This document shows, piece after piece, positions 3,224 through 31,336 of a stretch of DNA of 32,000 nt. The position numbers and the translations under genes are program-made. Source of the stretch: Candidatus Saccharimonadota bacterium (GTDB lineage: Archaea > Nanohalarchaeota > Nanosalinia > Nanosalinales > Nanosalinaceae); contig NZ_CP180230.1 in assembly GCF_047555085.1 (NCBI RefSeq), positions 990,001-1,022,000 of the forward strand, in the 5' to 3' direction. The notes below the pieces were generated by a model. The model was not told the DNA's origin, ran no database searches, and saw nothing but the letters and a program-made list of their open reading frames with translations. Position 1 is the stretch's first letter. Every line of letters begins with the position of its first letter.

Positions 3224-3438
3224 CGGGAAAACGCGCGGGACTCTGGACGATTAATTCCAGATAAACTTGGTCCCATTAAACATGAACTTTGACGACATAG
3301 TGGCGACTGCGCCCGTAGAGAAAACTGTTTCAACGCAGTAATCCGTCGCCATACAGTACTAAAACACTTGAACCATTATAAATCTTTCTTGCTTCCTCGG
3401 GATTACGTTTAAACAGGTTGCCGGAGAAGAAGTTTACC

Positions 3439-3816
3439 ATGATAGGCCTATTACTGCTGGCGATCGCAACAGTACCTTTCATCGACATATACATACTGGT
3501 GCAGATAGCAGGGATGATCGGCTTCTGGCAGACACTAGCACTGATCCTTCTCACAGGAGCTGTAGGCCTGGAAATCGTCAGAAGAGAAGGGATATACGTC
3601 CTTGTAAAGATGCAGAGATCAGTTACTGCCGGAGAGGCCTCAAGAAACGCACTTGAAATAGGATTCCTGGTGCTTGCAGGCCTTCTACTGATCCTTCCAG
3701 GTATCGTAACAGATGTAGCTGGATTTTTGCTTGTCTTCAGGCCTGTACGTGAAAGACTTGCTGCAAAATACAGCGGTGAAGGATTCAATGCAGAAGTAAG
3801 AACTTTTGGAATTTAA
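3439..3816 (+). CDS. fxsA: FxsA family membrane protein
   Basis: FIDIYILVQIAGMIGFWQTLALILLTGAVGLEIVRREG and LLILPGIVTDVAGFLLVFRPVR match the conserved FxsA blocks. The ATG at 3439 is preferred over the TTG at 3418. TTTAAA at 3408..3413 lies 26-31 nt upstream. Confidence 0.8.
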   Translation: MIGLLLLAIATVPFIDIYILVQIAGMIGFWQTLALILLTGAVGLEIVRREGIYVLVKMQRSVTAGEASRNALEIGFLVLAGLLLILPGIVTDVAGFLLVFRPVRERLAAKYSGEGFNAEVRTFGI

Positions 3817-5298
3817 CTATCTTTTATCATCGTTCAATCGATCTTGAAGCTCTGCAACGTTTCTCCTGAGACTCTGCATGCGGCCTTCAACGTTCTCCTC
3901 CCTCTGATGTACTCTTCTGATCTCTCTTTCCATCTTCCGGGCCTCTCTGCGCTCAATCACGTAAACTATCGCCACAACAAGCACAATAAGTGCAGCCACT
4001 GAACCAATTATGTAAAAAATCAGGTCTGATGAGTTGTCTTCGACCTGTAACTGTTGCCGTCTCCCTCCTATGCTGAAAGAGGCCTCTCCTGGTTCTACTT
4101 CTGTCTCGAAAGTTACAGTTCTGGTTTCTCCTGCTTCAAGAGATTCTGTATAAGTTTTTACAACTTCAGATCCCTGCATCAGATCGAAAGTTTTCTCACC
4201 AGCAATATTCCCGTTATTCGTTATAGAGGCCTGTACGCGGACTCTGGAAGTATTGGCTATCTGTTCAACTTTCATATCTGTTACCTGTAAATCTGCTCTT
4301 TCAGGAGGCTTCTCAGGAACACCTATTGCATATGATCCCGGTCTGAAATCTGCACTGTAGCGGTAGCTGTCAAAGTTCTGTGAGAGGAAGTTAATATCTA
4401 CATCACGCCACGAAGTGGAGGCCTGTCCCTTCAGGAATACATCTTCAGTCGACATCTGATCTTTGGAATCCAGCCAGGATTTATCGACTTTGAGGCCTAA
4501 CTCTCCGCCGCTGTAATCGGAGACTCCTGAAAGACTAACTACAATGTACGAGTATGCTCTGCCCGAATTTACTGAAACTCCTGCAAGAGGTGCGTCGCTA
4601 GTTGATAGCTCCATAGACGCATCCCTCACCGGCTCCTGTGCTGTGAAGCTGAGGCCTGTAAGGGACTTGCTGTTCTCCACAGTTACTACAAGCCTCTGGC
4701 CTCTTGATAGGGATCCTATGTCGACATCTGTGGCGCCGTCAAGAGTCACAGTTATACGTTTCGTGTTTGGTGGGGACAGAGATCCTGATGAATCGTTCTC
4801 GGAATCATTTTCCTGTGTTTCGTTGTCGTCTTCAGGCGGCAGGAAACCACCGCCGCCTCCGCCTCCAGAAGAACCGCCTCCAGAACTACCTGAGTCAGTT
4901 TCTTCCTCATTCTCTTCTTTGTTCTCTCCTGTATCCTCTTCAGTTTCATTGGATCCATCTTCTGCACCGGATTCGCTGAAATTACCGGCGTAATCGAGAT
5001 TTTCTGAAGCACCAGACACTATATCAATAAATTCAGAAGTATTCGATCCATTGACGAACATATAGGCCTCTTCTCCGCTCTCACCGGAAATTTTCACATC
5101 GTAGTATCCACTCGAATCAGTAGAGGTCTCTCCAACAATATTATCAGTCCTGAAACTTACATCCAGTCCTTCAACAGGATCGCCGGTACTGTATTCTGTT
5201 ATCTCTCCATATACCCTATGAGGCATCTCTGGCTGTGAAAAAGCGGGCGATGCCAGTAAAAACAGAAGTGTAATCAGAAAAACGTGCCGAGTATTCAA
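3817..5298 (-). CDS. membrane-anchored surface protein: signal peptide, carboxypeptidase-regulatory-like domain, acidic Gly/Ser linker, PGF-pre-PGF-like domain, CARDB-like domain, TM helix, charged cytoplasmic tail
   Basis: The TTG start preserves the signal peptide MNTRHVFLITLLFLLASPAFS. VYGEI...GYYDV is a CarboxypepD_reg-like pattern. KVDKSWLDSK...VFLKG...WRDVDI...YRYSADFRPGSYAIGV fits the PGF-pre-PGF pattern. LQVTDMKVEQ...ITNNGNIAGE...LEAGETRTVTFE fits CARDB. The C-terminus has helix LIFYIIGSVAALIVLVVAIVYVI followed by a 47-aa R/E-rich tail. Confidence 0.8.
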   Translation of the reverse strand: MNTRHVFLITLLFLLASPAFSQPEMPHRVYGEITEYSTGDPVEGLDVSFRTDNIVGETSTDSSGYYDVKISGESGEEAYMFVNGSNTSEFIDIVSGASENLDYAGNFSESGAEDGSNETEEDTGENKEENEEETDSGSSGGGSSGGGGGGGFLPPEDDNETQENDSENDSSGSLSPPNTKRITVTLDGATDVDIGSLSRGQRLVVTVENSKSLTGLSFTAQEPVRDASMELSTSDAPLAGVSVNSGRAYSYIVVSLSGVSDYSGGELGLKVDKSWLDSKDQMSTEDVFLKGQASTSWRDVDINFLSQNFDSYRYSADFRPGSYAIGVPEKPPERADLQVTDMKVEQIANTSRVRVQASITNNGNIAGEKTFDLMQGSEVVKTYTESLEAGETRTVTFETEVEPGEASFSIGGRRQQLQVEDNSSDLIFYIIGSVAALIVLVVAIVYVIERREARKMEREIRRVHQREENVEGRMQSLRRNVAELQDRLNDDKR

Positions 5299-5301
5299 TT
5301 T

Positions 5302-8300
5302 TTAGCCACCTCCATCGACCACAGGCTCAGAATAAGATGCTGAGTCCCCTTCCCAGTTCAGCCAGTAGGCCTCTCCAGGACTCATTTCTCCAGGACTATT
5401 TCCTGTGCTGTCTCTTACAGTATCTACCTGTCGGCTCCCTGCACTTGACTGTTCGTAAACAGTGTCGACATGTGTAGTGTCCAGTGCTCCAAATGCTCCT
5501 GTCTCGGAGTTATCAGCCGGTACCGTATGCTCCTGGAAAGTTCCAATCAAATTGTAGCCATTTGCAAGGCCTGTACTGGCATTTGCAAGATCTCTGCCCG
5601 TCATATGAGTTCTTACGGTATTGACGTTTGGATTCAACACGAAATCTTCTGAGGCCTTTATCATGTATCCTACTCCTCCTTCAAATTCAGTGAAATCGTT
5701 CTGTGAGGCCTCTGGATCATATGTCTGCCATTGGCTGTTCCTGTAAGTCCATACAACATCTATCTTGGAAGTATCGATAACTTTCTCGATTGCAGGAGTT
5801 GTCTCATCAGCTATCGGGAAGGAGACAAAGTTCCATCCCTCGACCATCTGCTTCCTGAAGCTGTTAACGGTTACATTGTCTGAGGCCTCCAATACTGCCG
5901 TGTTGCCGCTGGAATCTGTGATATTAGTTATACCTGTTACATTAGGACTGTTTCCTGTTGGCAGTATCTCTCCGTATTCAACTGTGTGTAGCTGTGCTGA
6001 ATCTGTGTTCTGGAACGCCAGTGCTTTACTGGAGAGATTGATCTGTTCTCTATCACCCTTCACCGGCTCGCTGAATCTTACATTGACGAAAGTGTTGGCG
6101 TAGGAGCTCTGTCCGTGATTTATCTGGGCGTTAAGAAGTACCGGATTTGTGGTGTCAACTGTTCCTGCGAAAACCTGTTCCTCGTCGATAGAGTTTCCGC
6201 TGGAGTCACGGATCGCCTCAGAGAACATTGTAACTGAAGGACTGCTGTCCGTGCCTCTTTCACTGCTTATCTCCAGATCAAGCTCCGAGTCATCAGATTC
6301 TCCTGAAACCACGCCCTCTACTTCACCGGCATCTCCTATGCTGAATGAGTCAGGGAGAAGTTCCGAGGCCTGATCATCAAGAGGCTCAGTAAAGTTCAGG
6401 CCTATCCTGTCTATCCTTGCATCCCTGTTATCGTCTCCAGTAGTTGCATTAAATATTACAGGTGCAGCCATATCTGCAAGAGTTCTATTGAAATCATTCA
6501 AAGTATTACCAGAGTTATCTACAACTGCATCGGCCTCGTAATCAAGGAACGGCTCACTTTCCTTAACACCAGTGATGTTTTCATCTGCGGAGGCCTCAAG
6601 TTCAAGAGTATCATTGTTTCCTGCGGTTCCGGAGTCAACTGTGAGGCCTGAAAGTTCTTCTTCAGTGACGTTCCAGTCATCGCTGCTGAATGCACTGTAA
6701 CTTATGTTCTCAGAGAAGTTCAGCTCTATAAGATCGACTTTTCCATCCTCATTGACGTCTCTGTAGACCTGTGTCTCCAGCTGCGGCTTGAGCCCATCCT
6801 GCGCGTACACAGAGTCATCGCTTCTGCTGTTAGCAGCATTGTCCTGAATGAATTCTCCTTCAGCGATTTCAACATCGAAAGTCTTGTTCGTCTGAACAGA
6901 CTCGTTCAACACAAGCACTATGTTGTTGCCATCCACCATGTTGGTGTCATCCGGTCCTAACGCCGAGTCCACAAGCAGGTCCTCTCCAACGATATTGAAT
7001 CTGCCTGGAGTGATATGGCTACCGTAGTCAAGGCCTGAATACTGCTCATTCGTCTTGACAAATACTTTAGACGTGGCAGTACTTTCCCCGCCGTTTCTGT
7101 TACCTGTCCAGGCCTCTACAAGTTCAGGTGCATGTCCATCGATCACCTGTACATCCTCGCTAGTTACAGTTCCGACAGATCCTCCTGCAAGAGAGATCTG
7201 TGACGTCTCTCCCTTGAAGCCGTGCAGCATATCACCTAGATCGCCTGCTGGCGCTGAATCAAACTCCACGGAGAACTTTGTATCATTTGTTATATTCTCG
7301 GAGACTCCTGAGCTCCATTTGAGGCCTCCATCGTATCCAAGTACTCCAACTTCTTCCCTGGTGTCCTCGTAATGCCTGTAGACTCTGAGGCCTGAATTTA
7401 TCGCCGTATCATTTGCTTCTGTGAAGAATTCAGGATAATCTGCAACATCGACTACGTTGCTTATCTCAATATCCTGTACAACGTTCTGGTAGACTCCGTT
7501 TCGATCAGTATCGTTTACTATCTTCTCTCCGTCGGAATAAGTTGCAGCAGTGTGTCGCGTTGAATCTGCAAAGTTGAATATTTCCTCACCATCGAATGAG
7601 TCCGAGGCGGATCCGTTTGTAACCAGCTCTACTTCGAGAATATCCTCTCCAGCGTTGTATACTCCTTCGTCAGCACCGGAGCTCTGTGAATCAAGGAACA
7701 CTGTTTTCTTCATCCCGGTCTCATTCAGAGATCTGTTGAAGTTCTGTAGATTGCCTTCAAACTCAGTATACACGTAATCATCAGAACCGGAAGTATCTGC
7801 CCTATCCAGCGATCCTTTACGCAGCAATCCGTCACGTCCTGCATCATGAACCAGAGGATCAACAGCAGGATCGAATCCTGTCGATCCCGTCTCCATATAC
7901 TTTGTCTCGGCCTGAAGAGCTGCAAAACCAGCGCTACCAGGAACTATTACATCGCTCCCGTCACCGAACCCGTTAGTGGCGTCTACGATGGCTTCACCTT
8001 CCTCGTACTCTGTAGAATCATCACTGTCGAAGTATCTTATGTTGCTGTCAAATCCTGCTGAAGGCATCCTTCCCTCTCTTATAATATCATCTGTATCGTT
8101 CAGGAACTCATCTGTCGTGGAAATCAAGGCCTCTCGTCCCTGCTCGTTATCTGAAAGCCTTCCTATACCTGCATCGTAGACATCCTTATTATTTCTATCA
8201 AGTGCTGCAACATTATCAGAGGCTGTGAAACTGTCAAGTACAGCTCCCTGATCAAGATCACCTTCCTCAACAGTACCGTTACCTGTATCCTTATCGCCTA

Positions 8301-9936
8301 ACTTCACTGTAGAGTTCCAGTGTCCAAGCCTGACATCGCCCGTGGAAACCTGGCCTGTATCATTCATCGCAACGTAGAGGCCGTCCTCAAAGACACTGTT
8401 CGAGGACGTGTCGACGTCCCAACGGGAAATATTTCCAAGAGTATCATTGTAATCATCAGAGATCAGAGTTCCTGCCTCACCTTCAGGCCCAAGAACGACA
8501 TAGTCCTGAGCAGAGTCAGAAATATTCAGAACAACCTGATCTCCAGCAGTGTAATATCCGTCCTCATCCGTATCATTGTAGCCTAACTCTCCTGATTTCG
8601 TGTAGTTCCCGGCAGGAGAATCAGTACTGTCAACATCGCTCTGCGTGAACTCTGTTCCAACAGAGGCCTCTACAGTACCGTTATCAGGATCCTGATTGTA
8701 CAGAAGGATATCGCCCTCGCTAAGGCCGTCGTCTTCTGTGTCATAGACAATGACGTCCTGATCAACGCTGTCTCCTGGATTCCAGGAGCCTGTGCTGGAG
8801 CCGTACTCAAGCACTCTGAAACTTCCACCACTGTAAACACTCAGGGATTTCCCGAGATCGTTCGTCTCAGGATGACTGTCAGAACTATTCATTACTGAAA
8901 GCAGATTCAGGCCTAGAGATATCCCTGTGGAAGAAGGCCTTGAAGAGACATCGTAGTTGCCAAGCCGGATATCGGAAGCGTTAACGTAGTTATTATTTTC
9001 CTGACTGTAGTATATCGGATCTCCGGACGTGAAAGCGCCATCGCCCTGATCTGCGTAAAGTAAAGTCGTCTCATTGGCCCACAGAAGATCAGCCTTTCCA
9101 TCCCTCTTGATGACATCGCCGCTTCTCTCAAGAGTATCATCCTTACTTCCCTCCTCACGCACTATAGCGGAGGAAGCAACGAATCCTATCTGTGAGCCGT
9201 TCTGCTCCAGATATCTCGTCGTATCGGCCTCAAACTGGCTTGGATAGAACTCCGATCCAAGATCAATCACTCTATCACTGCTGTCAAGCACGTTATCAGA
9301 GCTATTCACAAGAATCTCCGTTCCATAAACTCCTCCATCAAACTGTCCATTGCCGTTTGACTCCACGTACCGGACATCACTGTGAAGAGTCCTTGAAGAG
9401 AAGTTACCTGAAGCCAGTACCTCGGCACTTCTGTCAACGAGGCCTGAATCAGTACGCAAAACTATCTCTCCGGCGAATCCTGCTGTAGAATTATTTCCAT
9501 CAAAAACACTGTTGTTATCGACACCGCCATCCAAAAAGTAGACATCGGAAGAAAAGTTCGCTATCGCAGTACTGTTCAGCACAGAGGCCTTATCGCCCAC
9601 ATGCTCACGTACAACTCCAAGAATGTCCTCTCCATCACCGTATCCGTTGAGGCCTTTATCCTCTCCGGACTGATTCAGGAACATCGTACTGTTATCCTCA
9701 AAACTGTAGACAGCAGCTCCCGGTACAGGCGATCCCGAAATATTTTCGTCGCCCCCATAAGTAATATTGAAACTGAAAGCACCAACACCGGTAGAATCAG
9801 GCTGAACTGTCTCATCATTAGCCATTCCATCTCCAAGAGGAGTTATCGACGTCCCTGAAGCCAGGCCCGTCAGAAATACAGCTAAAGCTAAAACATAAAG
9901 TACATCAGCGATGTCCGAATTTTCTCTCGCTTTCAT
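5302..9936 (-). CDS. giant (1544 aa) acidic secreted surface protein, S-layer or adhesin candidate, with no recognisable membrane anchor
   Basis: Single uninterrupted ORF with an ATG start and signal-like N-terminus (VLYVLALAVFLTGLASG). It has more than 40 N-x-S/T sequons by eye. Degenerate D-x-[DN]-G-x-[YF]-x-x-G-[DE] repeats recur. The C-terminus has two GWNFVSFP...GYM / GYNLIGTF...AYWL modules. There is no C-terminal TM or PGF-CTERM. Confidence 0.85.
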   Translation of the reverse strand: MKARENSDIADVLYVLALAVFLTGLASGTSITPLGDGMANDETVQPDSTGVGAFSFNITYGGDENISGSPVPGAAVYSFEDNSTMFLNQSGEDKGLNGYGDGEDILGVVREHVGDKASVLNSTAIANFSSDVYFLDGGVDNNSVFDGNNSTAGFAGEIVLRTDSGLVDRSAEVLASGNFSSRTLHSDVRYVESNGNGQFDGGVYGTEILVNSSDNVLDSSDRVIDLGSEFYPSQFEADTTRYLEQNGSQIGFVASSAIVREEGSKDDTLERSGDVIKRDGKADLLWANETTLLYADQGDGAFTSGDPIYYSQENNNYVNASDIRLGNYDVSSRPSSTGISLGLNLLSVMNSSDSHPETNDLGKSLSVYSGGSFRVLEYGSSTGSWNPGDSVDQDVIVYDTEDDGLSEGDILLYNQDPDNGTVEASVGTEFTQSDVDSTDSPAGNYTKSGELGYNDTDEDGYYTAGDQVVLNISDSAQDYVVLGPEGEAGTLISDDYNDTLGNISRWDVDTSSNSVFEDGLYVAMNDTGQVSTGDVRLGHWNSTVKLGDKDTGNGTVEEGDLDQGAVLDSFTASDNVAALDRNNKDVYDAGIGRLSDNEQGREALISTTDEFLNDTDDIIREGRMPSAGFDSNIRYFDSDDSTEYEEGEAIVDATNGFGDGSDVIVPGSAGFAALQAETKYMETGSTGFDPAVDPLVHDAGRDGLLRKGSLDRADTSGSDDYVYTEFEGNLQNFNRSLNETGMKKTVFLDSQSSGADEGVYNAGEDILEVELVTNGSASDSFDGEEIFNFADSTRHTAATYSDGEKIVNDTDRNGVYQNVVQDIEISNVVDVADYPEFFTEANDTAINSGLRVYRHYEDTREEVGVLGYDGGLKWSSGVSENITNDTKFSVEFDSAPAGDLGDMLHGFKGETSQISLAGGSVGTVTSEDVQVIDGHAPELVEAWTGNRNGGESTATSKVFVKTNEQYSGLDYGSHITPGRFNIVGEDLLVDSALGPDDTNMVDGNNIVLVLNESVQTNKTFDVEIAEGEFIQDNAANSRSDDSVYAQDGLKPQLETQVYRDVNEDGKVDLIELNFSENISYSAFSSDDWNVTEEELSGLTVDSGTAGNNDTLELEASADENITGVKESEPFLDYEADAVVDNSGNTLNDFNRTLADMAAPVIFNATTGDDNRDARIDRIGLNFTEPLDDQASELLPDSFSIGDAGEVEGVVSGESDDSELDLEISSERGTDSSPSVTMFSEAIRDSSGNSIDEEQVFAGTVDTTNPVLLNAQINHGQSSYANTFVNVRFSEPVKGDREQINLSSKALAFQNTDSAQLHTVEYGEILPTGNSPNVTGITNITDSSGNTAVLEASDNVTVNSFRKQMVEGWNFVSFPIADETTPAIEKVIDTSKIDVVWTYRNSQWQTYDPEASQNDFTEFEGGVGYMIKASEDFVLNPNVNTVRTHMTGRDLANASTGLANGYNLIGTFQEHTVPADNSETGAFGALDTTHVDTVYEQSSAGSRQVDTVRDSTGNSPGEMSPGEAYWLNWEGDSASYSEPVVDGGG

Positions 9937-9961: not shown

Positions 9962-10284
9962 GGCACACTACCGAGGCACAGTTCAAAGGCCTCAATAGTT
10001 CCTGGTCACTAAATAATGGGCCTAGCTGGTTTAAAAAATCACTTAATACGACAGCCATCAAAAAAGCCAGAAACACCTGTTGTTACCAAAAAGTATAAAA
10101 AAGTTTACTGTGATAGTTGTGTTACGGGTTGGCTACCCGAAGTGAAGCAACCTCTCTTCGACTCTTGTCAAACTTCATCTGTAGAAGAGGGGAAGATAAC
10201 TTGAGGGGGATCAACAGGGAGCGAGAGCTCCCCAAACAGGCCCTCCACAAAAATTTCCAGGAAAAATTTCTCCACAGTGCAGAA

Positions 10285-10325: not shown

Positions 10326-10478
10326 GCCTCGATGGCTCAGCTTGGTAGAGCGGTCCCCTCGTAGGCGTGGTTACTCTCGAGCCGGACGCAACAAGTCCAT
10401 CCAAAGAATGGCTTCCGGTATTGCAGCAAACTACACAGAGCTAGGGACAGATCCCGGGTTCAAATCCCGGTCGGGGCT
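10326..10478 (+). tRNA. tRNA-Thr (anticodon CGU) interrupted by a 79-nt intron
   Basis: Cloverleaf read by eye. Acceptor is GCCTCGA/TCGGGGC (one G-U). D arm is GCTC-AGCTTGGTA-GAGC. Anticodon stem is GTCCC/GGGAC with loop C-T-CGT-A-[intron]-A. Variable region is AGATC and T arm is CCGGG-TTCAAAT-CCCGG. Discriminator is T and no CCA is encoded. The mature length would be 74 nt. Confidence 0.85.
10364..10442 (+). other. tRNA intron at the canonical 37/38 position
   Basis: A bulge-helix-bulge can be drawn. C32-U33-C34 pairs with G10440-A10439-G10438, plus one G.A mismatch. Three-nt bulges TA|G and CT|A flank this helix. An outer helix GCGTGG/CTACAC has 5 of 6 pairs. An internal hairpin GCCGGA...TCCGGT is present. 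There is no TGATGA or CTGA box. Confidence 0.7.
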
Positions 10479-11448: not shown

Positions 11449-11856
11449 TTATTCTGTTACCGTGATTCTTCCGCCGGCTGCGAAAGGCCTGTGATTGTGG
11501 TAGCTCCAGTTGCCTGTCTTTTTGAACGTGAAAGAGTATTTTTCTCCTGTCTGGCATTGATCGAAGGCTGTTATCGAAGAGTTTCCGCAGTGTTCTCCTA
11601 TAGTTGTGTTGGAGTAGTCTGTATGTGTTGGATGGGGATCAGAGGCTATCCACATGCTGATGGAGGCCTTGTTGCGCCATACAACTGTATCGCCTTTTTC
11701 GATAGTCAGGACAGTTGGCTGGAAGCCTCTCTCCGTCATGTTGACTGTATAAGTCTCTGACTCATCCAGGTCTTCCTGCTGTTGTGGTGCGAAAAGTGCG
11801 ACGAGTGAGACAGCGAAGACTACCAGTGCCAGAGTCCTGATCTGTGGCTTCTCCAT
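11449..11856 (-). CDS. secreted or anchored cupredoxin-like domain protein
   Basis: N-terminal hydrophobic helix. GFQPTVLTIEKGDTVVWRNK...DPHPTHTDY...SYHNH fits the cupredoxin-like beta-sandwich pattern with His/Cys candidates. The metal site is not verified. Confidence 0.6.
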   Translation of the reverse strand: MEKPQIRTLALVVFAVSLVALFAPQQQEDLDESETYTVNMTERGFQPTVLTIEKGDTVVWRNKASISMWIASDPHPTHTDYSNTTIGEHCGNSSITAFDQCQTGEKYSFTFKKTGNWSYHNHRPFAAGGRITVTE

Positions 11857-11902
11857 GAATTGAAGATTTGTGGATCTCTGTATAAAAAATGCTTCAAAGT
11901 AT

Positions 11903-12646
11903 TCAGGCCTCTGCAGTTATGTGATCCCAGTATACTCCGACAAGCAGAAGTGATAGGAAAGTTATCGCGGCGAAGTACGAAGATGTTGCAAAGTAGTCTC
12001 CCTCTGTGAGAAGCATTCCGAACTCGTCCATGAATATTCCTAGGCCTGTCCCGTAGAGTACTGCAGCGTATTTCTTGGAGAATCCTTCGCGGAAGAGCAG
12101 AAGCCATCCTGCGGAGATCAGTGCTGCGAATCCGAAGAAGAAATGATGGATGTGATATCCGCTCACCCATATCTCGTTAACCGGTATAAAGAATGCAGGG
12201 CCTGCTGTTTCAGGGCCTACGATGCCGGAAAGTATAACTGCTACACGTGCAACAACGAATGACAGGAAAAAAGTGGAGAGAACTATCATACGGAGCTTGG
12301 ATTTTTCCGAGTACGATGAAACTTTCTCCAGTGATCCAAGATATATATCGAAGAGAAAGTGAAGTATTGCACTTGTAGAAAGCAGGAAGAATCCGGCTAT
12401 AATACTGAAAAGCTGTTCCTCAACGACTAAAGCAGACATAACTTCCTCTGCAAGATCTCCAAGCACAAAACTGTAGAAAGCTGCCGGGAAACGTGGAAAA
12501 AGCAGTGCAGAAACAGTAGCGGAGAATCCTACTACGACTCCAAGCGTGGATAAGCTTCGCAGAAGCTTCAGATCATCTTTTTCCAGGCCCAGAAAGGCAA
12601 ATACCCTCTTCAATAAAGATTTCAGGGCCTTAAAGCTTCTATCCAT
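11903..12646 (-). CDS. polytopic membrane protein, unknown function
   Basis: 247 aa with an ATG start, about 6-7 hydrophobic helices and a conserved-looking GYHIHHFFFG segment. Confidence 0.65.
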   Translation of the reverse strand: MDRSFKALKSLLKRVFAFLGLEKDDLKLLRSLSTLGVVVGFSATVSALLFPRFPAAFYSFVLGDLAEEVMSALVVEEQLFSIIAGFFLLSTSAILHFLFDIYLGSLEKVSSYSEKSKLRMIVLSTFFLSFVVARVAVILSGIVGPETAGPAFFIPVNEIWVSGYHIHHFFFGFAALISAGWLLLFREGFSKKYAAVLYGTGLGIFMDEFGMLLTEGDYFATSSYFAAITFLSLLLVGVYWDHITAEA

Positions 12647-12687
12647 AAACAGGAACAGTTTTTTGACTGAAAATTTATAGAACTGTC

Positions 12688-13158
12688 TCAGTGAAATGTA
12701 GGATCATCATCAGGATCCTTGAATCTTTCTACACCTGTCCCGAGATCGCTCTCCGGCCAGGGATGATTTAACACAGTCAGCGCCCGCTCCTCGTAAGTTT
12801 CTCTATCCAGGCCTGAAAGCTGATCCTCGTACTCACGGAACACGGCTCTAGTCTTCTTCGCAAGCAGGATTTCATTTCCATCATCGAGGAAAGCCGTCGC
12901 CATAGCCAGATCGAGTTCCTCATCCCCGAGATAATCACTTCTCAAAATCTTCCTCGTCTGATGCGCGTATAGAGCTGCACCTACCTCAGCAAGCTCGTCA
13001 CGTACCTGTTCAGGAACTTCATCCAGCTGATGATCCAAGTTCTTCTCCAGGAGATCCTCGTAGGCCTCTTCCACTTCATCTCCAACAGCCTCTCCCACAA
13101 CTTCCTGGAAGTACTCCTGAAGCTCGTCAACAAGCTCCTCTCGATCCTTATCCTCCAT
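12688..13158 (-). CDS. hypothetical highly acidic protein
   Basis: The ORF is open to 13170 (TTG). The ATG at 13158 (MEDKDREEL...) is preferred. No motif recognised. Confidence 0.6.
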   Translation of the reverse strand: MEDKDREELVDELQEYFQEVVGEAVGDEVEEAYEDLLEKNLDHQLDEVPEQVRDELAEVGAALYAHQTRKILRSDYLGDEELDLAMATAFLDDGNEILLAKKTRAVFREYEDQLSGLDRETYEERALTVLNHPWPESDLGTGVERFKDPDDDPTFH

Positions 13159-13212
13159 AGGCCTCAACAACGAGATTAAAAGTTATAATTTTCCCGGAAG
13201 AAAAGCTTTAGT

Positions 13213-13413
13213 ATGAAACTGGAAAGCTGGAAAGGCATCACATTACTCTGGATTGCTTCATATATCACAGCCATAGTGGCCGCATCTATAACCTGTAGGC
13301 TATTCCAGTGTGCCAGTCAGGCCCGGATAGGAGGAATATTTTTACAAACACTTATGGTTCTATCACTGCTATTCTGGTTCTACCTACGTGGGAAAAGAAA
13401 GGAACAAGAGTAG
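13213..13413 (+). CDS. possible small two-helix membrane protein
   Basis: 66-aa ORF with two hydrophobic stretches that fills an otherwise empty spacer. No other support. Confidence 0.3.
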   Translation: MKLESWKGITLLWIASYITAIVAASITCRLFQCASQARIGGIFLQTLMVLSLLFWFYLRGKRKEQE

Positions 13414-16412: not shown

Positions 16413-17105
16413 TCAGGAAGATTTCCTTGAAGTCACGTGGAGGCCTCTCTTTCCTGTCCTGTAGATGTACTGTATCTCAGATACTGTTAGAGGCCTGTTG
16501 TACAGTCTTATTTCACTGAGTTCTCCGCTGTAGTATGCTGTGGTCTCGTTTGTCGTCGAATCATTGGACTGAGCCATTCTTCCGAACTGTAGGTTGCCGC
16601 CGGTATCATGGTTCTGGGCGTTCCAGTTCCATGTATCAACTAGTTCTCCGTCAACGAAAGCTCTGGCCGTTGAACCGGAATCGTTGAAAGTGGCTGCGAT
16701 GTGATGTAATTCTCCGTCGTTCACAGTTATCGTGCTTACTGTGTGTTCATAGGTCGAGTCGCCGTTCATAAATCGTAGATAACCATTGCCATCCCTGTTG
16801 ACCTCCGCTTCGTACACCGGCTGCCAGTCGTTGACAGGATTTTTCCTGATAAAACCTCCTCTACCGGAAGTCGAAGTTCTGATCCAGAAAGACATTGTCA
16901 GCTCTCTTCCTTCAAGAGAAAGCTCTGGAGAGTCAGACACCTCAACGAAATCGTCCGATCCATCAAAGCTGTATGCGTTCTGGCCGTGGAGGCCTGAAGC
17001 CGTTCTCGTAATACCTCCGTTCAAAGTGCCATGATTCTCATTAGATGAAAAATCCTTTGCGTCCCCGGAGCCCTCATTTAGAGGCCAGTATCCAACTAAC
17101 ACCAT
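16413..17105 (-). CDS. LamG / concanavalin-A-like lectin-fold protein without an obvious signal peptide
   Basis: LVGYWPLNEGSGDAKDFSSNENHGTLNG...YSFDGSDDFVEV...SFWI...HHIAATF...FVDGELV...SEIRLYNRPLTVSEI is the classic Laminin_G_3 pattern. Confidence 0.8.
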   Translation of the reverse strand: MVLVGYWPLNEGSGDAKDFSSNENHGTLNGGITRTASGLHGQNAYSFDGSDDFVEVSDSPELSLEGRELTMSFWIRTSTSGRGGFIRKNPVNDWQPVYEAEVNRDGNGYLRFMNGDSTYEHTVSTITVNDGELHHIAATFNDSGSTARAFVDGELVDTWNWNAQNHDTGGNLQFGRMAQSNDSTTNETTAYYSGELSEIRLYNRPLTVSEIQYIYRTGKRGLHVTSRKSS

Positions 17106-17141
17106 ATCAACGGAATCGCAGAATATTTTTCATAGAGGTTT

Positions 17142-19067
17142 TCACGTCACGTTTATGACTATACTATCGTTTTCAGGCCTGAACTTTGCGCCTTCCTTTA
17201 TAGTCACTTTTTCAGCTGTTATAGTGAATCCTCCTGTCCACAGGCCTGAAATTGCGGATTTATTGAATATGTTAAGTTGTGCAGGAGCTGATAAAGCACC
17301 TACATCAGCTTTTTGCTTCGCCTGGAAGATTTCCTGTATTGAAAAGCTCTTGTCTGAAATCTGTTTTGAACTGTTCAAAATACATTCATTTCTTGGGCCT
17401 CTCAAGTCGCATAAACTGGAGACAACGGTTGAAAATTCCCAGTAAGGTGACTGGATGCTGGAGAAGCCGTCTGTAACTTCTACATACCAGTAGTATGTTT
17501 CATTTGTTTCAAAATCAGCGTAGTTTACTTCAGGCCTTGTGTCAGATTCAACATTTGTCTTGCTTCCAAGAGAGTATGTTTCTGGCTTTTTTTCGCATAA
17601 AACTGTCTGTTCTGCGGAGTTGCTGCACTGGTAGTCGTTCCATTTACCTCCCGAGTACATCTCTGCACAGTCTTCACCGTTCTGATTGTTAGGTTCGTTG
17701 CTGCCCCAGTTCACGTAGCTTGAGGAGCCGTTCTCCCATTCAAAGTTTCCTTCTGATGCTCTGTCATTGTATCCTATCCATAGATCTCCGCCGAACTCCT
17801 GATTTATCGCATCATTTTCCTCGGCATCGTTGATAGTTACGATATGGCCTCCCTGAGCTTTGCAGTAGTCTACTCCATTTGTCCAGCTCTGAGTTGATTC
17901 GCTTTCATTATAGCAGACTTCATCTATACGCGTCCAGCCGGAAGGACAGTCTCCAAGCGCCTTGAAACTTACATTCAGCTGTTCTCCATCCGGATCCGAG
18001 ACGTTAACCGAGAAATCTACAGGCATAGAAAGATTTTCTGCCCCGTCCTGAGGACCTGGATCAAAAACGTCAGGAACGCCAATAGTTATACTTGGTTCCG
18101 GTTCCGCCCTGTCAACACTGTATCTAAGGCCTGAACTGCCGGATGAAATCCTCCACTGGCCTCCCCATCCGCCTGTATCTTCGTTCACCATCATCAGGAC
18201 AAGATTCCTGCCCTGATCCAGCGTAGCTGAGAAAGTACTGTCATCTACGGTGAGGCCTTGATCATCACACTCCTGATGCTCCAGATTCCCATTAATCCAT
18301 ACTTTTCTCGTGTCATCTGAACCTACAGAGAAATCAACAGTACGAGTATCAGGACTCCATATGTAGGCCCCTATAAATCCTTCTGAGCTGGACTGATCGC
18401 TGCCCCATACAGTATCGAAGTCAACCTGGTACTGGCTGTAACCTCCGTACACACCGGAATTAGTTGTATCAATCGCTTTCCAGAAACTTCCAGAATCCCA
18501 GTTAGAGCTTCCTAGAGTGGAGGATGCATGAGGCCTGTCTGTTGCAGGATCAAAGTTGGCATCTAGCGTACAATCTACATTTCCTCCTGCCCATTTCATC
18601 CCTATGAACTGGTCTCTCGTGTATCCTCCGGAAGTAAGAGTTCCTGAAGGAACTGTCTGGCTGAAGCTTGTCTTTGAAGATGCCTGCGGATTATCGTAGT
18701 AAACATATACGTTCTCTGTTGCACCTGCACCAATATCCTGCACATTAACTACAAGATCCGTGGAATCAGTGTTACAGCCTGATTTTATCCAGTAGTCAAG
18801 TGATGTGCTGTCATCAGTGTCAACGAACCTGAGATCGCTGCAGTCGTTCTGAAGACTACCTGAATCCACAAGAGTCGCTGTATCTATAGTCATCCTCACC
18901 GGATAGTTGGAAAGTGTTCTCCCAGAGTTCTCTGTAATCTCTATTGTTTTCCTGTCGTTCCAGCTATCATTCCACCAGGAAGCAGATAGAGGCAGAACTA
19001 GAAGTAGTAAAATCATAACCAAGAATATTCTCGGGAATTTCTGCAGTATTTTCCGGCTGTACGACAT
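17142..19067 (-). CDS. secreted multi-lectin protein: signal peptide, DUF2341, PA14-like domain, Fn3-like domain interrupted by a C-type lectin domain, conserved C-terminal module
   Basis: Residues 31-135 carry the DUF2341 pattern (WWNDSWNDRK...DLRFVD...LDYWI...VYVYYDNP). Residues about 150-320 look like PA14 (FIGAYIWSPDTRTVDFSVGSDDTRKVWINGN...LDQGRNLVLMMVNEDTGGWGGQWRIS). Residues 374-491 are the C-type lectin domain. Residues 552-641 are shared with the 20436 gene. Confidence 0.85.
   Translation of the reverse strand: MSYSRKILQKFPRIFLVMILLLLVLPLSASWWNDSWNDRKTIEITENSGRTLSNYPVRMTIDTATLVDSGSLQNDCSDLRFVDTDDSTSLDYWIKSGCNTDSTDLVVNVQDIGAGATENVYVYYDNPQASSKTSFSQTVPSGTLTSGGYTRDQFIGMKWAGGNVDCTLDANFDPATDRPHASSTLGSSNWDSGSFWKAIDTTNSGVYGGYSQYQVDFDTVWGSDQSSSEGFIGAYIWSPDTRTVDFSVGSDDTRKVWINGNLEHQECDDQGLTVDDSTFSATLDQGRNLVLMMVNEDTGGWGGQWRISSGSSGLRYSVDRAEPEPSITIGVPDVFDPGPQDGAENLSMPVDFSVNVSDPDGEQLNVSFKALGDCPSGWTRIDEVCYNESESTQSWTNGVDYCKAQGGHIVTINDAEENDAINQEFGGDLWIGYNDRASEGNFEWENGSSSYVNWGSNEPNNQNGEDCAEMYSGGKWNDYQCSNSAEQTVLCEKKPETYSLGSKTNVESDTRPEVNYADFETNETYYWYVEVTDGFSSIQSPYWEFSTVVSSLCDLRGPRNECILNSSKQISDKSFSIQEIFQAKQKADVGALSAPAQLNIFNKSAISGLWTGGFTITAEKVTIKEGAKFRPENDSIVINVT
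17145..17414 (-). other. conserved about 90-aa C-terminal module, copy 1
   Basis: LCDLRGPRNECILNSS..IS...F....IF.A...AD...N.S.ISGLW.G.....GA.FRPE...I..NV aligns without gaps to the C-terminus of the 20436 gene, at roughly 40 percent identity by eye. Confidence 0.7.
17595..17948 (-). other. canonical long-form C-type lectin domain (protein residues 374-491)
   Basis: CPSGWTRIDEVC...SWTNGVDYC...HIVTINDAEEN...WIGYND...NEPNN..GEDCAEM...KWNDYQC.....LC. Six Cys sit at the positions of the three CTLD disulfides. The WIG motif, an EPN triplet and a WND triplet are all present. Confidence 0.8.
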
Positions 19068-19068
19068 T

Positions 19069-19248
19069 TTAATCCTTCTTGCTGTATTTCTTGAATCCTG
19101 TCTTTCCTTCCTTCTCCTCTGAGGCCTTGCTTTTAGTCTTCTTGGCCTTTCTTTTGAGATAGCTCCGGCCGCATTTATGGCATTTCACACGCTTCTGGGC
19201 CTTACTTCTCTGGCGGTACCCGCAGTCAGGACACTGGTAGTACACCAT
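19069..19248 (-). CDS. small zinc-ribbon protein with lysine-rich tail (59 aa; below the ORF-track cutoff)
   Basis: My translation of the minus strand is MVYYQCPDCGYRQRSKAQKRVKCHKCGRSYLKRKAKKTKSKASEEKEGKTGFKKYSKKD. It carries a CxxC...CxxC motif. Its TAA stop is separated by 1 nt from the ATG of the multi-lectin gene. Confidence 0.55.
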   Translation of the reverse strand: MVYYQCPDCGYRQRSKAQKRVKCHKCGRSYLKRKAKKTKSKASEEKEGKTGFKKYSKKD

Positions 19249-19339
19249 GTAGAGAGATTTAATTCGGAACTGTAAAAACGTAGCGGTGAGTTACAGGAAA
19301 TCCGAAATATTTTTCCCGGATGCGGAAGAAATACCAGTT

Positions 19340-19618
19340 ATGGACCAGAAAATCAAGAAAGGAGGCCTGATAGGAGTAATATTTGCGTTAATAGCATATG
19401 TGATCGCGCTCCGTAACGGATTCAACCAGTCAACTTTCACACTTTTTCTCTACCTGTATGTAGGCCTTGGCGTAATCGCTTCCCTGGAATTTTCTGATCT
19501 CCAGGCCCGTGGATTTCTGGACAGAATAGTTATAGTGGCAGAGGATGAGGAAAAGAAGCTGAAGAAGCTTTTCAGCGACGAAGAATACAGAATCGACGGC
19601 ACTGTAGAGAAAGTCTAG
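19340..19618 (+). CDS. small two-helix membrane protein
   Basis: The ATG at 19340 (MDQKIKKGGLIGVIFALIAYVIAL...) is preferred over the GTG at 19286. An A/T box at about 19306..19315 lies 25-34 nt upstream. Its stop shares the tetranucleotide CTAG with the convergent gene. Confidence 0.5.
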   Translation: MDQKIKKGGLIGVIFALIAYVIALRNGFNQSTFTLFLYLYVGLGVIASLEFSDLQARGFLDRIVIVAEDEEKKLKKLFSDEEYRIDGTVEKV

Positions 19619-20400
19619 TGACTATCCCTATCGATGACAACACCGTCACTGTCCTCAAGAACTGCTCTATCCGATGTCTCATCCCAGTCAACACCTGTAC
19701 CGTACACATACCCTGAGTCCTCTTCCTCGGAGACATTAAGCGCGTCTTCGGCAGCAGTGTACACGAACAACTGTTCTCCTGGCTCCAGAACAATATTTTC
19801 AAACGTATAGGAATCCGGATCAGAGTTTGTCAACGTCCAGCCATCAAGATCTATCTCCCTGTTCTCATCATTGTCTATAACAGCTCTTTCATCTTCATCG
19901 GAGGCCTTTGAACGTGTTATCCTTACATCGACTTCAGGAGTCATCTCGTTTCTTACTCTGGCTCTGTAATCATCCATACTTTCCTTCATAGACTGCATCC
20001 TGTTTTCAAGAACAGTCCTGTTCGCTCCCTTGAAACGGGAGACAGATAATCCATCTTTCAGGCCTTCGACAAGAGTTCCTGCCGCCATCTCCAGAGTATA
20101 TATTCTTGAAGTATTGTTGACTTTCAGAGTCAAAGTTCCTCGCGGAGTAGAAAGTTTCTCGATCCTCTGGAACGGATTTTCTTTAACAGTATAAAGAGAG
20201 TCGCTTTCCTCTATAGAGGCCTTTGAGAAATCCTCTGCCTCAATATCCACATCGGTCTGGAGATTTGAGGTATCAGAAACCATAGGCGTTGATTCAGAGC
20301 CGAAATCAACGTTTTGAGATGCCGTAGGAAAAGCTAGAAGAGCTGTAAGGATAAAGGCAGATATGATAGCTCCTGTTCTATCCGAAGCCATCTCTAACAT
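19615..20400 (-). CDS. secreted protein with C-terminal lamin-tail domain (LTD)
   Basis: Signal-like N-terminus (AIISAFILTALLAFPTASQ). The C-terminal VIDNDENREIDLDGWTLTNSDPDSYTFENIVLEPGEQLFVYT...WDETSDRAVLEDSDGVVIDRDS fits the LTD pattern. Confidence 0.75.
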   Translation of the reverse strand: MLEMASDRTGAIISAFILTALLAFPTASQNVDFGSESTPMVSDTSNLQTDVDIEAEDFSKASIEESDSLYTVKENPFQRIEKLSTPRGTLTLKVNNTSRIYTLEMAAGTLVEGLKDGLSVSRFKGANRTVLENRMQSMKESMDDYRARVRNEMTPEVDVRITRSKASDEDERAVIDNDENREIDLDGWTLTNSDPDSYTFENIVLEPGEQLFVYTAAEDALNVSEEEDSGYVYGTGVDWDETSDRAVLEDSDGVVIDRDSH

Positions 20401-20435
20401 TAAAACAGAGTTTCCTGATTAAAAATTATTGGCCT

Positions 20436-21728
20436 CTACTCAACTACGTTGAGAGAAATCCTGCCGTCTTCAGGCCTGAAATATGCACCAGAAGTGAGAA
20501 CCAGTTCCCGGGATGAGAGATTGATGCTGCCTCTCCACAGGCCCGAGATCGTGGATCTGTTATCGACATTTATCGCTCCTGAGGCCTCTGTTGAGCTTAT
20601 ATCAGCTGATTCTCTGGCAATAAATATAGAGTTGAATGTGAAGTCTTCCCCTGATATATCTCTTGAACTGTTTATTATGCATTCGTTCACAGGGCCTCTG
20701 GCATCACATATATCCACAGAGGCCTCAGATCCTATCTCTATCTGAGGTTTGCTGGCCACATAGTTTCTTGTTCTCACCCAGTCATAGGATGTGTCCGTGG
20801 TTGTTGGGTCAGAATCCAGTGAGAAATGTCCGAGGCCTATGACAAAGTTTGAATGCTGTGAGGTGAGATCTCCTGTGCACGAGACACGGTTATCATAGTT
20901 TAGAGCTGTCTGGACTTGTGATCCTGTATCAGTTATACTGTAGATGTAGTTTTCTCCAGTAGTGGCTGTGAAAGTGCTGACTCCAGAACAGATATTGTAT
21001 GAAGTTGTATCGCCGTTCCCTGTCCATGTTGAAACTTGTCCAGATGTCTCATCCGTAATGAAAAGTACATTTGCATTGCCGTTGCTGTTGCTTCCTGACA
21101 TAGTGCCGCTGTCAGCTATCATAAGGCCTGAGTGATCTCCAGAGATGCTTGAAGTATATTTTAGCCGGGCCTCTACTACAGTTCCTGGCTGTGAGACTTC
21201 TTCAGTAGCCGAGTGAACGTTTCCTGTAGTTATTTCCAGTCTGCCGTTTGATTCTGTAAGTGCATCGCCGCTGTTGTAGTCAGTCCACTGGTCTGAAAGC
21301 GTACCGTCATTGAAACCGTCGAAAACAGGGAAAGTTGCCTTGCCGTTGCTTCCTGGAGAGGCCTCCGGATTGCCGTAGTATGCGTATATTGTTTTCTCGG
21401 CTCCTGCCTTTAGTTCAGGGAGTTCTACCCATACCGTGGTAGATTCTGTGTTGCAGCCGGATTCTATCCAGTAATCCATGGATGTATCGTTATTTCCTGC
21501 AAACCTCAAATCCTGACACGAGGCCCGCATATTACCGCTGGATATCATTTCAGAAGTATTTAACTCCAGTTTAATCTGGTGATTACTGAGATCCTGTCCT
21601 GAAGTCTCTGTAACTGTGATATTTTTCCTGTAATCCCAGCTGGAATCCCACCACGCTGCAGATACAGGAACGGAAAGCATCAGCACAGCAACCAAGGCAA
21701 AAATCGCTGAAATTTTCCTGTTATTCAT
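20436..21728 (-). CDS. secreted DUF2341 plus ConA/LamG-like lectin-fold protein with conserved C-terminal module
   Basis: The ATG at 21728 (MNNRKISAIFALVAVLMLSVPVSA) is preferred over the GTG at 21755. It has a DUF2341 block (WWDSSWDYRK...DLRFAG...MDYWIESG...IYAYYGNP). A jelly-roll region ends in the typical YDWVRTRNYV. The C-terminal module is paralogous to that of the 17142 gene. Confidence 0.8.
   Translation of the reverse strand: MNNRKISAIFALVAVLMLSVPVSAAWWDSSWDYRKNITVTETSGQDLSNHQIKLELNTSEMISSGNMRASCQDLRFAGNNDTSMDYWIESGCNTESTTVWVELPELKAGAEKTIYAYYGNPEASPGSNGKATFPVFDGFNDGTLSDQWTDYNSGDALTESNGRLEITTGNVHSATEEVSQPGTVVEARLKYTSSISGDHSGLMIADSGTMSGSNSNGNANVLFITDETSGQVSTWTGNGDTTSYNICSGVSTFTATTGENYIYSITDTGSQVQTALNYDNRVSCTGDLTSQHSNFVIGLGHFSLDSDPTTTDTSYDWVRTRNYVASKPQIEIGSEASVDICDARGPVNECIINSSRDISGEDFTFNSIFIARESADISSTEASGAINVDNRSTISGLWRGSINLSSRELVLTSGAYFRPEDGRISLNVVE
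20439..20711 (-). other. conserved about 90-aa C-terminal module, copy 2
   Basis: ICDARGPVNECIINSSRDISGEDFTFNSIFIARESADIS...NRSTISGLWRGS...SGAYFRPEDGRISLNV. See copy 1 at 17145..17414. Confidence 0.7.
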
Positions 21729-21794
21729 GGAACACACGGATATAGAAGAGATCACTACAGCTTAATGATTTTTCCCTATACCTTTGAGACTTCA

Positions 21795-30904: not shown

Positions 30905-30933
30905 AGTTCAAATAGAAGTTTACGGGAAAATGT

Positions 30934-31311: not shown

Positions 31312-31336
31312 ACCTACCTTATGGAATTAAAACTTC

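Follow-up and report, generated by a model that had tools for sequence, protein, structure and literature searches.

To our knowledge, the way in which wall-less archaea hold surface proteins devoid of any anchor of their own is described in molecular detail mainly for the Sulfolobales, with the pair SlaA/SlaB. In halophiles, the accepted route is the lipidation of the surface protein itself by the PGF-CTERM/ArtA system. In the cellulosomes, a terminal docking domain borne by varied secreted cargo is recognised by a module of a cell-bound partner, the scaffoldin (cohesin-dockerin system). We analysed two adjacent genes on the reverse strand of a 32,000-nucleotide (nt) stretch of the nanohaloarchaeal contig NZ_CP180230.1 (positions 990,001 to 1,022,000, hereafter the window; GC content 45%), the first coding for a giant protein of 1544 amino acids (aa) and the second for a partner of 493 aa. 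Sequence comparisons suggest that this pair is probably one copy of a two-gene cassette, conserved in halophilic archaea, for the display of proteins at the surface, composed of an anchorless cargo and of a dedicated anchor which would hold the giant on the cell.

SlaA of Sulfolobus acidocaldarius is a soluble, beta-rich protein of 1424 aa with 31 sequons, and SlaB (475 aa) is composed of a signal peptide, three beta-sandwich domains and a C-terminal transmembrane (TM) helix; in Sulfolobus, a contact has been proposed between the C-terminal domains of SlaA and the N-terminal beta domains of SlaB (PMC10903991). As far as can be read from its sequence, the window pair shares with this system a large anchorless protein, beta-rich and bearing many sequons, and an adjacent gene coding for a small protein of similar size to SlaB, with a signal peptide, three predicted beta-sandwich domains and a single C-terminal TM helix. 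The geometry, with the C-terminus of the cargo facing the N-terminal domain of the anchor, would also be the same. In contrast, no sequence or fold relationship with SlaA or SlaB was detected, either by profile searches of the PDB or by Foldseek on the C-terminal domain of the giant (the dock domain), which is the only confidently modelled part. SlaB displays a 132-aa extracellular helix forming a trimeric coiled-coil stalk, whereas the partner displays an acidic Gly-rich linker and, after the TM helix, a heptad segment (residues 448-493) on the predicted cytoplasmic side. The cassette described here also differs from SlaA/SlaB by its modularity, with many cargo types and several anchor types.

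The ArtA-dependent S-layer glycoprotein of haloarchaea (NF041335, TIGR04126) is, as the two window proteins are predicted to be, an acidic and N-glycosylated surface protein of halophiles. Other links with the ArtA/PGF-CTERM system are found in contigs of high GC content, where the partners contain a PGF-pre-PGF domain, several of them a PGF-CTERM, and the cargo a TIGR04207 signal. However, the exposed domains and the anchor signal of the haloarchaeal glycoprotein are carried by one polypeptide, whereas here the anchor is on a separate protein, and the window giant and partner have neither a PGF-CTERM nor a match to NF041335. The resemblance with cohesin-dockerin lies in a docking domain, usually C-terminal, on varied cargo, for which binding is here a prediction; folds and sequences are unrelated, and each cargo gene has its own adjacent partner instead of a shared scaffoldin. 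By analogy, the pair would work like SlaA/SlaB, and more loosely like cohesin-dockerin, and would be a member of neither. Finally, the SPEARE proteins also belong to the Nanohaloarchaeota; they are large, secreted or exposed on the surface, and thought to act at the cell surface or at the host interface. They are described as possessing their own transmembrane and cytoplasmic portions, and SVXNc_0300, encoded by a 28-kb gene, contains a cytoplasmic VirB4/TraG-like ATPase domain (PMC6642349, PMC10266531). Unlike them, the giant is anchorless and no known domain was detected in it outside the immunoglobulin (Ig)-like repeats.

Anatomy of the giant and of its partner

The gene of the giant and its domains are the following:

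5302..9936, reverse strand: gene of the giant anchorless surface glycoprotein, the cargo (1544 aa, ATG start, TAA stop)
9850..9936, reverse strand: signal peptide of the giant, aa 1 to about 29 (sole hydrophobic stretch, conserved in homologues; predicted cleavage site)
5875..6858, reverse strand: three tandem Ig-like repeats of about 105 aa each, aa 1027-1354 (sub-profile self-search)
5305..5874, reverse strand: C-terminal all-beta dock domain, aa 1355-1544, with the motifs GWNFVSFPI, GGxGY, GYNLIG and GEAYW

An earlier note on this DNA had described the giant as a protein with a signal peptide and with no TM helix, PGF-CTERM or lipobox, and the present data agree with this description. The hydropathy profile confines the hydrophobic 19-mers to residues 7-32. 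The absence of any Cys residue makes a lipobox impossible, and the absence of a PGF-CTERM is deduced from the C-terminus, which reads ...EPVVDGGG. The protein is acidic (18.3% of Asp and Glu, isoelectric point 4.05) and contains 47 N-x-S/T sequons, compared with about 20 expected from its composition. None of the Pfam and NCBIfam families, including NF041335 and PF07752, matches the giant at E<=1. The Ig-like repeats were seen only by sub-profile scanning (segments 1027-1147, 1134-1250 and 1240-1350 are linked to one another), since BLASTP of the giant against itself reveals no repeats. Giant proteins as long as 7565 aa contain numerous copies of this repeat, and relatives give matches to the families Big_5 and Big_13. 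The N-terminal half of the giant contains diverged internal repeats, where residues 150-285 resemble residues 582-690 and residues 80-130 resemble residues 742-795. An AlphaFold2 model of the C-terminal 800 aa, obtained from a 5-sequence alignment, was too poor for fold comparison (mean predicted local distance difference test, pLDDT, of 34); the only segment with a pLDDT near 70 falls in the Ig-like repeats.

The dock domain, whose profile match spans residues 1355-1543 of the 1544, is the best-conserved region of the giant, with a mean pairwise identity of 58% as compared with 49-53% elsewhere. Its own AlphaFold2 model (41-sequence alignment) is all-beta and confident, with a pLDDT of 88.5 and a predicted template modelling score (pTM) of 0.85. 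Foldseek found no neighbour of this model in the PDB (best E 0.08, TM-score <0.25). Only one structural neighbour of the model of residues 1340-1544 exceeds a TM-score of 0.5: a 587-aa "putative hemin binding protein" of an uncultured marine phage, modelled in BFVD, a match which is not interpretable (E 2.7e-4, TMq 0.52). When the C-terminal 800 aa of the giant were used in an exhaustive HMMER search, 1006 cluster representatives were recovered at E<=1e-3. The dock domain is mostly found at the extreme C-terminus, in proteins of many sizes, and those whose names were looked up are all hypothetical or uninformatively named. No description of the dock domain or of the cassette was found in the literature searched.

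The partner is organised as follows, from its N-terminus to its C-terminus:

3817..5298, reverse strand: gene of the membrane-anchored partner, the anchor (493 aa plus stop, TTG start)
5233..5298, reverse strand: signal peptide, aa 1-22, ending in ...ASPAFSQ (from the sequence and the leaders of homologues; predicted cleavage site)
4984..5232, reverse strand: N-terminal "PHRVYG" beta domain, aa 23-105, CarboxypepD_reg/TTR-like, proposed receptor of the dock domain
4774..4983, reverse strand: acidic Gly-rich linker, aa 106-175, including GGGSSGGGGGGG
4309..4773, reverse strand: PGF-pre-PGF domain (TIGR04213), aa about 176-330, with a hidden Markov model (HMM) match at 197-318
4039..4308, reverse strand: CARDB-like domain (PF07705), aa about 331-420, with an HMM match at 335-401
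3958..4026, reverse strand: single TM helix, aa about 425-447 (Kyte-Doolittle windows up to 2.97 at residues 422-453)
3820..3957, reverse strand: basic, heptad-patterned and predicted cytoplasmic tail, aa 448-493 (46 aa)

The architecture given in the earlier note (PGF-pre-PGF-like and CARDB-like domains, one TM helix and a tail rich in Arg and Glu) is recovered by the HMM matches and the hydropathy profile, the tail counting 46 residues instead of 47. Conservation in the partner is highest in the PHRVYG domain (mean pairwise identity of 54%, as compared with 41-44% for the remaining ectodomain), and PF13620 (CarboxypepD_reg) matches 4 of the 11 members of the partner family. In the linker, the poly-Gly run is conserved and the acidic flanks are variable. 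TIGR04213 gives 18 bits on the window partner, under its cut-off of 28, and matches all 11 family members at E<=0.01 (best 1.9e-8); the PGF-pre-PGF homology is thus supported at the level of the family, the window protein alone being below threshold. In the literature searched, the PGF-pre-PGF family appears only in a domain count (PMC5244752). The CARDB match is marginal on the window partner (23.1 bits for a cut-off of 22.7) and is found in 6 of the 11 members; the same stretch has a PDB profile match to 3idu/2kl6, deposited as "Uncharacterized protein". The TM helix is located at the same position across the family.

The tail is predicted to be cytoplasmic because of the signal peptide, the single TM helix and the positive-inside rule. 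The 47-residue stretch which includes the last TM residue has an isoelectric point of 10.6 and displays hydrophobic residues at positions 10, 14, 17, 24, 28, 31, 35, 38 and 42. This a/d heptad pattern was taken from the sequence itself. The residues E449, A453 and E457 are invariant, for a mean pairwise identity of 49% over the tail.

The earlier note had also stated that neither protein resembles the haloarchaeal S-layer glycoprotein. This holds: in addition to the absence of NF041335 in the giant, the partner matches neither NF041335 nor TIGR04126 (its C-terminus reads ...LNDDKR and its TM helix contains no PGF motif), and a profile search of the PDB chains with the giant and partner families returned no S-layer protein. 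PF07752, the S-layer domain of the MSTP-like proteins proposed for DPANN phyla, does not match the partner. The PF07752 proteins of Methanosarcina match only 17-26% of the partner, with which they share Pfam families of the CARDB and CarboxypepD_reg types.

The junction of the two genes reads GGA GGT GGC TAA AAA TTG AAT, with TAA at 5304..5302, AAA at 5301..5299 and TTG at 5298..5296. This confirms that the giant ends in TAA and that, 3 nt later, a TTG opens the frame of the partner. From this TTG to the ATG at codon 25, the frame contains no further ATG, GTG or TTG, so that, as had been claimed, TTG is the only start which keeps the hydrophobic N-terminus. The source gene caller began the partner at the internal ATG (469 aa), and the signal peptide was therefore lost. 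Of 10 aligned partner homologues, nine possess an N-terminal leader ahead of the invariant PHRVYG motif (in two of them the leader is short, with a start inside it) and one homologue starts at the motif; several partner genes of relatives have TTG or GTG starts. The absence of an alternative start, the leaders of the homologues and the TTG or GTG starts of the relatives make the TTG start well supported, and non-ATG starts appear to be systematic for the partner gene. In the locus L018, the called start of the partner yields MSLAQPDFPEQPHRVYGE, with no signal peptide. One further element is found at the junction:

5306..5313, reverse strand: Shine-Dalgarno (SD)-like motif GGAGGTGG, within the last Gly codons of the giant, 7 nt upstream of TTG (predicted function)

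In archaeal operons, SD motifs are typical of distal cistrons. The motifs GGAGGT, GGTGA or GGTGG are present upstream of the partner start in the loci L001, L003, L005, L008, L010, L020, L023, L024 and L026. The SD-like motif fits a single mRNA for the two genes and their co-translation.

Conservation of the pair and recurrence of the cassette

The relatives are annotated as Ca. Nanosalina or Nanohaloarchaea. Homologues of the giant are full-length at 32-64% identity, and those of the partner share 30-60% identity and the same architecture. The existence of these full-length homologues (49-64% identity for the giant, 30-60% for the partner) indicates that both are real genes. In every relative contig examined (loci L001-L006, L008-L010 and L017-L019, with Ca. 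Nanosalina J07AB43 among them), a partner homologue of about 490-565 aa comes directly after the giant, with gaps of -4 to +55 nt, and this synteny is kept when the identity of the giant falls to 32-34%. Downstream of the pair there is always the same block of housekeeping genes, comprising FxsA, DUF5794 and an OB-fold gene; beyond them, most loci also contain LigT, PRC, RadA, RPA and a histone gene. Conservation of the gene pair across related genomes, which the earlier note had proposed as a check of its two-component reading and whose loss it would have counted as a refutation, is therefore observed in each of these relatives.

Two variations were noticed in this family. In L003 (467-2218) and L004 (597-2348), a second protein similar to the small family (583 aa) is encoded about 1.9 kb upstream of the giant. 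It contains PKD domains, a weak match to the N-domain and a match to the CARDB/TM region, and no dock-domain gene is found directly upstream of it. In L017, a Ca. Nanosalina metagenome-assembled genome (MAG), the partner contains a PKD domain and the pair is followed at 11767-13317 by an extra gene of 516 aa, without signal peptide and with a charged, coiled-coil-like C-terminus. This 516-aa protein is a candidate cytoplasmic partner of the anchor tail.

The association is not limited to the giant. Our survey comprised 88 loci, of which 62 were contributed by a metagenome scan with a 7-sequence alignment of the domain, and it contains 55 distinct dock-domain open reading frames (ORFs; <90% mutual identity). 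A match was considered as strong at E<=1e-20 and with at least 300 nt of sequence downstream. An ORF containing the partner N-domain comes next, at -24 to +136 nt, for 31 of the 32 strong dock-domain ORFs and for 1 of the 22 weak ones; as a reference, the window partner matches the N-domain profile with an E of 1.4e-29. The GC content of the contigs ranges from 32 to 65%. Seven dock-domain proteins of differing N-terminal architecture (L020-L026) were looked up, and each of them is directly followed, on the same strand, by a gene coding for a signal peptide and then a PHRVYG-type N-domain:

L020, L021, L023: cargo of 830-864 aa with Ig repeats; partner of 676-685 aa with a TM helix and a tail of about 165 aa with two C2H2-like motifs
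L022: cargo of 1040 aa with Glug, CarboxypepD_reg and Flg_new_2; partner of 435 aa with a TM helix and almost no tail
L024: cargo of 575 aa with Big_5; partner of 506 aa with a TM helix and an acidic tail
L025: cargo of 509 aa with CARDB and Flg_new_2; partner of 397 aa with a TM helix and a short tail
L026: cargo of 821 aa with the dock domain near the N-terminus; partner of 214 aa with no clear TM helix

In L026 (1558-4664), the dock domain occupies residues 121-286 of the 821, the genes of the cargo and of the partner overlap by 4 nt, and the partner is composed of a signal peptide, a PHRVFG domain and an acidic linker. In L020 (5047-7086), L021 (7624-9654) and L023 (4469-6526), the cytoplasmic tails of these paralogous partners end in the two C2H2-like motifs, CSICMEEF...HIHQSFSH and CxVCGxxF...HIHQGMxH. 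A cytoplasmic zinc-finger module is unusual on a surface anchor, and it could serve in signalling or in tethering to a cytoplasmic partner.

The PHRVYG-type N-domain is the one module common to all partners in all cassettes. On the other side, the dock domain ends a few residues from the C-terminus of the cargo in most cassettes, with the exceptions of L026, L039 and L041. The two proteins are asymmetric with regard to membrane attachment. No anchor was detected in the cargo of the 31 paired cassettes, whereas 28 of the 31 partners have a C-terminal TM helix or PGF-CTERM, the others being L008 (frameshifted), L039 (cut by the contig end) and L026 (no clear TM helix). In the contigs of high GC content, the cargo measures 1180-1360 aa and carries TIGR04207, the haloarchaeal surface-glycoprotein signal peptide, and the partners are composed of a PHRVYG-type N-domain, PGF-pre-PGF and a C-terminal anchor. 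Among the four high-GC partners scanned, three (the shorter ones) match CarboxypepD_reg (PF13620) and three match TIGR04213 with 41-93 bits. Several end in a clear PGF-CTERM, such as ...IPGFGVTVALIALLSFAMLALRRQS. The same cassette is thus present in Halobacteria-like genomes, where a lipid-type anchor signal replaces the TM helix and the tail.

Proposed mechanism and alternative explanations

From these observations, we propose the following mechanism. The giant would be exported through its Sec-type signal peptide and heavily N-glycosylated, without an anchor of its own in the membrane. The partner would be translated from the same mRNA by means of the SD-like motif in the last codons of the giant and of the TTG start. 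It would be a type-I membrane protein presenting, at the most membrane-distal position, the PHRVYG domain on a flexible acidic Gly-rich linker, with two further beta-sandwich domains beneath it (PGF-pre-PGF and CARDB) and then the single TM helix. The C-terminal beta domain of the giant would dock on the partner, most likely on the PHRVYG domain, and the docked giant would form an outer glycoprotein layer, or canopy, on the cell. This interface is proposed because the dock and PHRVYG domains are the only modules common to all cassettes; they are also the conservation peaks of the two proteins.

The earlier note had put forward a two-component surface module with the partner as membrane anchor. 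On comparative grounds, conserved adjacency, recurrence in 31 of 32 cases and the asymmetry of the anchors strongly favour this module; the physical binding of the two proteins is what we infer from them. The same note had also suggested that the tail contacts something in the cytoplasm. The partners of other cassettes are tailless, end in a PGF-CTERM, or bear a tail that is either acidic or about 165 aa long with two zinc-finger-like motifs, and such a contact is therefore not a general feature of the system. The heptad tail, which the nanohaloarchaeal orthologues share, looks like a lineage-specific addition of this group, outside the core mechanism, with a possible role in oligomerisation or in cytoplasmic contact.

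Several points weigh against the reading of the pair as cargo and anchor. Adjacency indicates functional coupling and not binding, and the partner could act in maturation or assembly. The reciprocal count, where 54 of 57 N-domain ORFs lie directly downstream of a dock-domain ORF, is not independent, because the loci were collected through the dock domain. In Ca. Nanohalococcus SVXNc, the pair is absent at the syntenic FxsA locus. L062 has a strong dock-domain match without a partner, and L026 departs from the general scheme both by the N-terminal position of its dock domain and by a partner with no clear TM helix. Finally, in halophilic Thermoplasmata MAGs (L011-L016), Peptidase_S8 subtilases (1373 and 1766 aa) and an FG-GAP protein (680 aa) carry distant dock-like domains at their C-termini, with no PHRVYG-domain gene nearby. 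These Thermoplasmata matches are weak (23-27% identity; E of 1e-5 to 1e-11 with a broad profile) and without partners, for which reasons we treat them as distant relatives and not as counter-examples. They may represent an older, partner-independent use of the dock domain. They had first suggested a free-standing portable anchor domain, an idea which was set aside on the same grounds. The transcriptome table of SVXNc (PMC10266531) was considered as a source of expression data and is uninformative, the pair being absent at the syntenic FxsA locus of that genome.

A more specific version of the cargo-and-anchor reading adds the formation of a lattice. The pair would be the S-layer of this nanohaloarchaeon, with the giant as two-dimensional lattice (SlaA-like) and the partner as membrane stalk (SlaB-like). 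The sizes and the layout of the two proteins (1544 and 493 aa) mirror those of the S. acidocaldarius proteins SlaA and SlaB (1424 and 475 aa), and the 47 sequons compare with 31 (PMC10903991). An S-layer has been seen in nanohaloarchaea by electron microscopy and cryo-electron tomography (PMC7443923, PMC11291902), and the candidate nanohaloarchaeal S-layer proteins in the literature searched rest on annotation or prediction alone. In the relatives examined, the pair occupies a single conserved locus amid housekeeping genes, and in the window AglB and other glycosylation genes are nearby. Against this version, the same cassette is found in Halobacteria-like contigs, whose known S-layer glycoprotein is itself anchored by PGF-CTERM (NF041335), which means that the cassette in itself is no S-layer device. 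Nanohaloarchaea-like contigs also contain several cassettes whose cargo is smaller. A preprint (10.1101/2024.05.28.596244, Table S1) predicts other S-layer proteins for Nanohaloarchaeota, of 839, 1015 and 1069 aa with p6 lattices; our 819-864-aa cargo family is close to these proteins in size. Moreover, no homology to SlaA, SlaB, csg or PF07752 was found with Pfam, NCBIfam, PDB profiles or Foldseek of the dock domain. We regard the S-layer assignment as rather doubtful.

Alternatively, the two genes could be co-transcribed and code for independent surface proteins, the giant being released or held by its C-terminal domain to another target (surface glycans, lipid or another envelope layer) and the partner having a function of its own. 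The Thermoplasmata dock-like domains without a partner gene nearby and the partnerless L062 go in this direction. However, the Thermoplasmata matches are the weak ones described above, and without a direct functional coupling one can hardly account for the adjacency in 31 of 32 cases over several cargo types, a GC content of 32-65% and two kinds of anchor chemistry. Independence is unlikely. The partner could also, instead of anchoring dock-domain proteins permanently, help in their export, folding or assembly, in the manner of an usher or a chaperone. This would suit the strict adjacency and the SD-like coupling equally well, as well as the L026 partner without clear TM helix, but it is the least probable explanation. 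No ATPase, protease or channel features were found in the partner, which contains only non-enzymatic beta-sandwich modules (CarboxypepD_reg-like, PGF-pre-PGF, CARDB, and PKD in L017) plus an anchor in the membrane or of lipid type, a composition usual for structural surface proteins.

The cargo-and-anchor reading can also be extended, as a tentative conjecture, to a general docking system in Nanohaloarchaeota and Halobacteria. In this extension, an all-beta domain of about 190 aa, usually located at the C-terminus and without a solved structural relative, would mark unrelated secreted glycoproteins for capture, through the PHRVYG domain, by a membrane- or lipid-anchored partner encoded next to them. 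Such a system would be new to the literature, and the counterpart in archaea of SlaA/SlaB or of cohesin-dockerin. The largest nanohaloarchaeal cargo would build the S-layer, and the varied tails (coiled coil, zinc fingers) would couple the envelope to the interior of the cell.

Genomic setting and significance

The surroundings of the pair in the window contain the following genes:

3418..3816, forward strand: FxsA gene, abutting the stop of the partner gene
16413-21755, reverse strand: run of surface proteins (Laminin_G_3, 230 aa; DUF2341 and C-type lectin, 641 aa; Lamin-tail domain, 261 aa; DUF2341, 439 aa)
27120-29783, forward strand: AglB/STT3, in the N-glycosylation cluster (whole cluster 27120-31912)
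29780-30904, forward strand: GT4 family glycosyltransferase, same cluster
30934-31311, reverse strand: cupin, same cluster
31337-31912, reverse strand: NAD-dependent epimerase/dehydratase, same cluster

The cluster 27120-31912 is plausibly the machinery which would glycosylate the 47-sequon giant, and SecD/SecF are also encoded in the window. Together with an intron-containing tRNA (see below), AglB/STT3, the GT4 glycosyltransferase and SecD/SecF identify the window as archaeal. The four proteins of the run at 16413-21755 are further predicted surface proteins, and none of them contains the dock domain or the PHRVYG domain. Upstream of the giant, a TATA-like sequence TTTTTATAC is located at about 10093-10103 on the reverse strand, in the 390-nt intergenic region and about 160 nt from the ATG. 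If this candidate is the promoter, a long 5' leader is implied. On the opposite strand, about 390 nt upstream of the giant start, Rfam detects a tRNA at 10326-10478 (forward strand, 153 nt, 47.1 bits) which was not reported by ARAGORN, and whose length implies an intron.

The cassette with an anchorless cargo and a dedicated anchor appears to be widespread in halophilic archaea and is undescribed in the literature searched. It would extend two-component surface anchoring and, if true, add to the halophiles a second and modular anchoring route. It would also give a function to the PGF-pre-PGF domain family, and define a new docking domain whose fold is confidently predicted but unsolved. As Halobacteria-like contigs carry the cassette, the mechanism would be testable by genetics in any tractable haloarchaeon that possesses one. 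The nanohaloarchaea are obligate symbionts, for which the cell surface is the site of host contact and whose envelope proteins are, in the literature searched, assigned solely through annotation or prediction, and the pair described here is a concrete candidate for their main outer layer.

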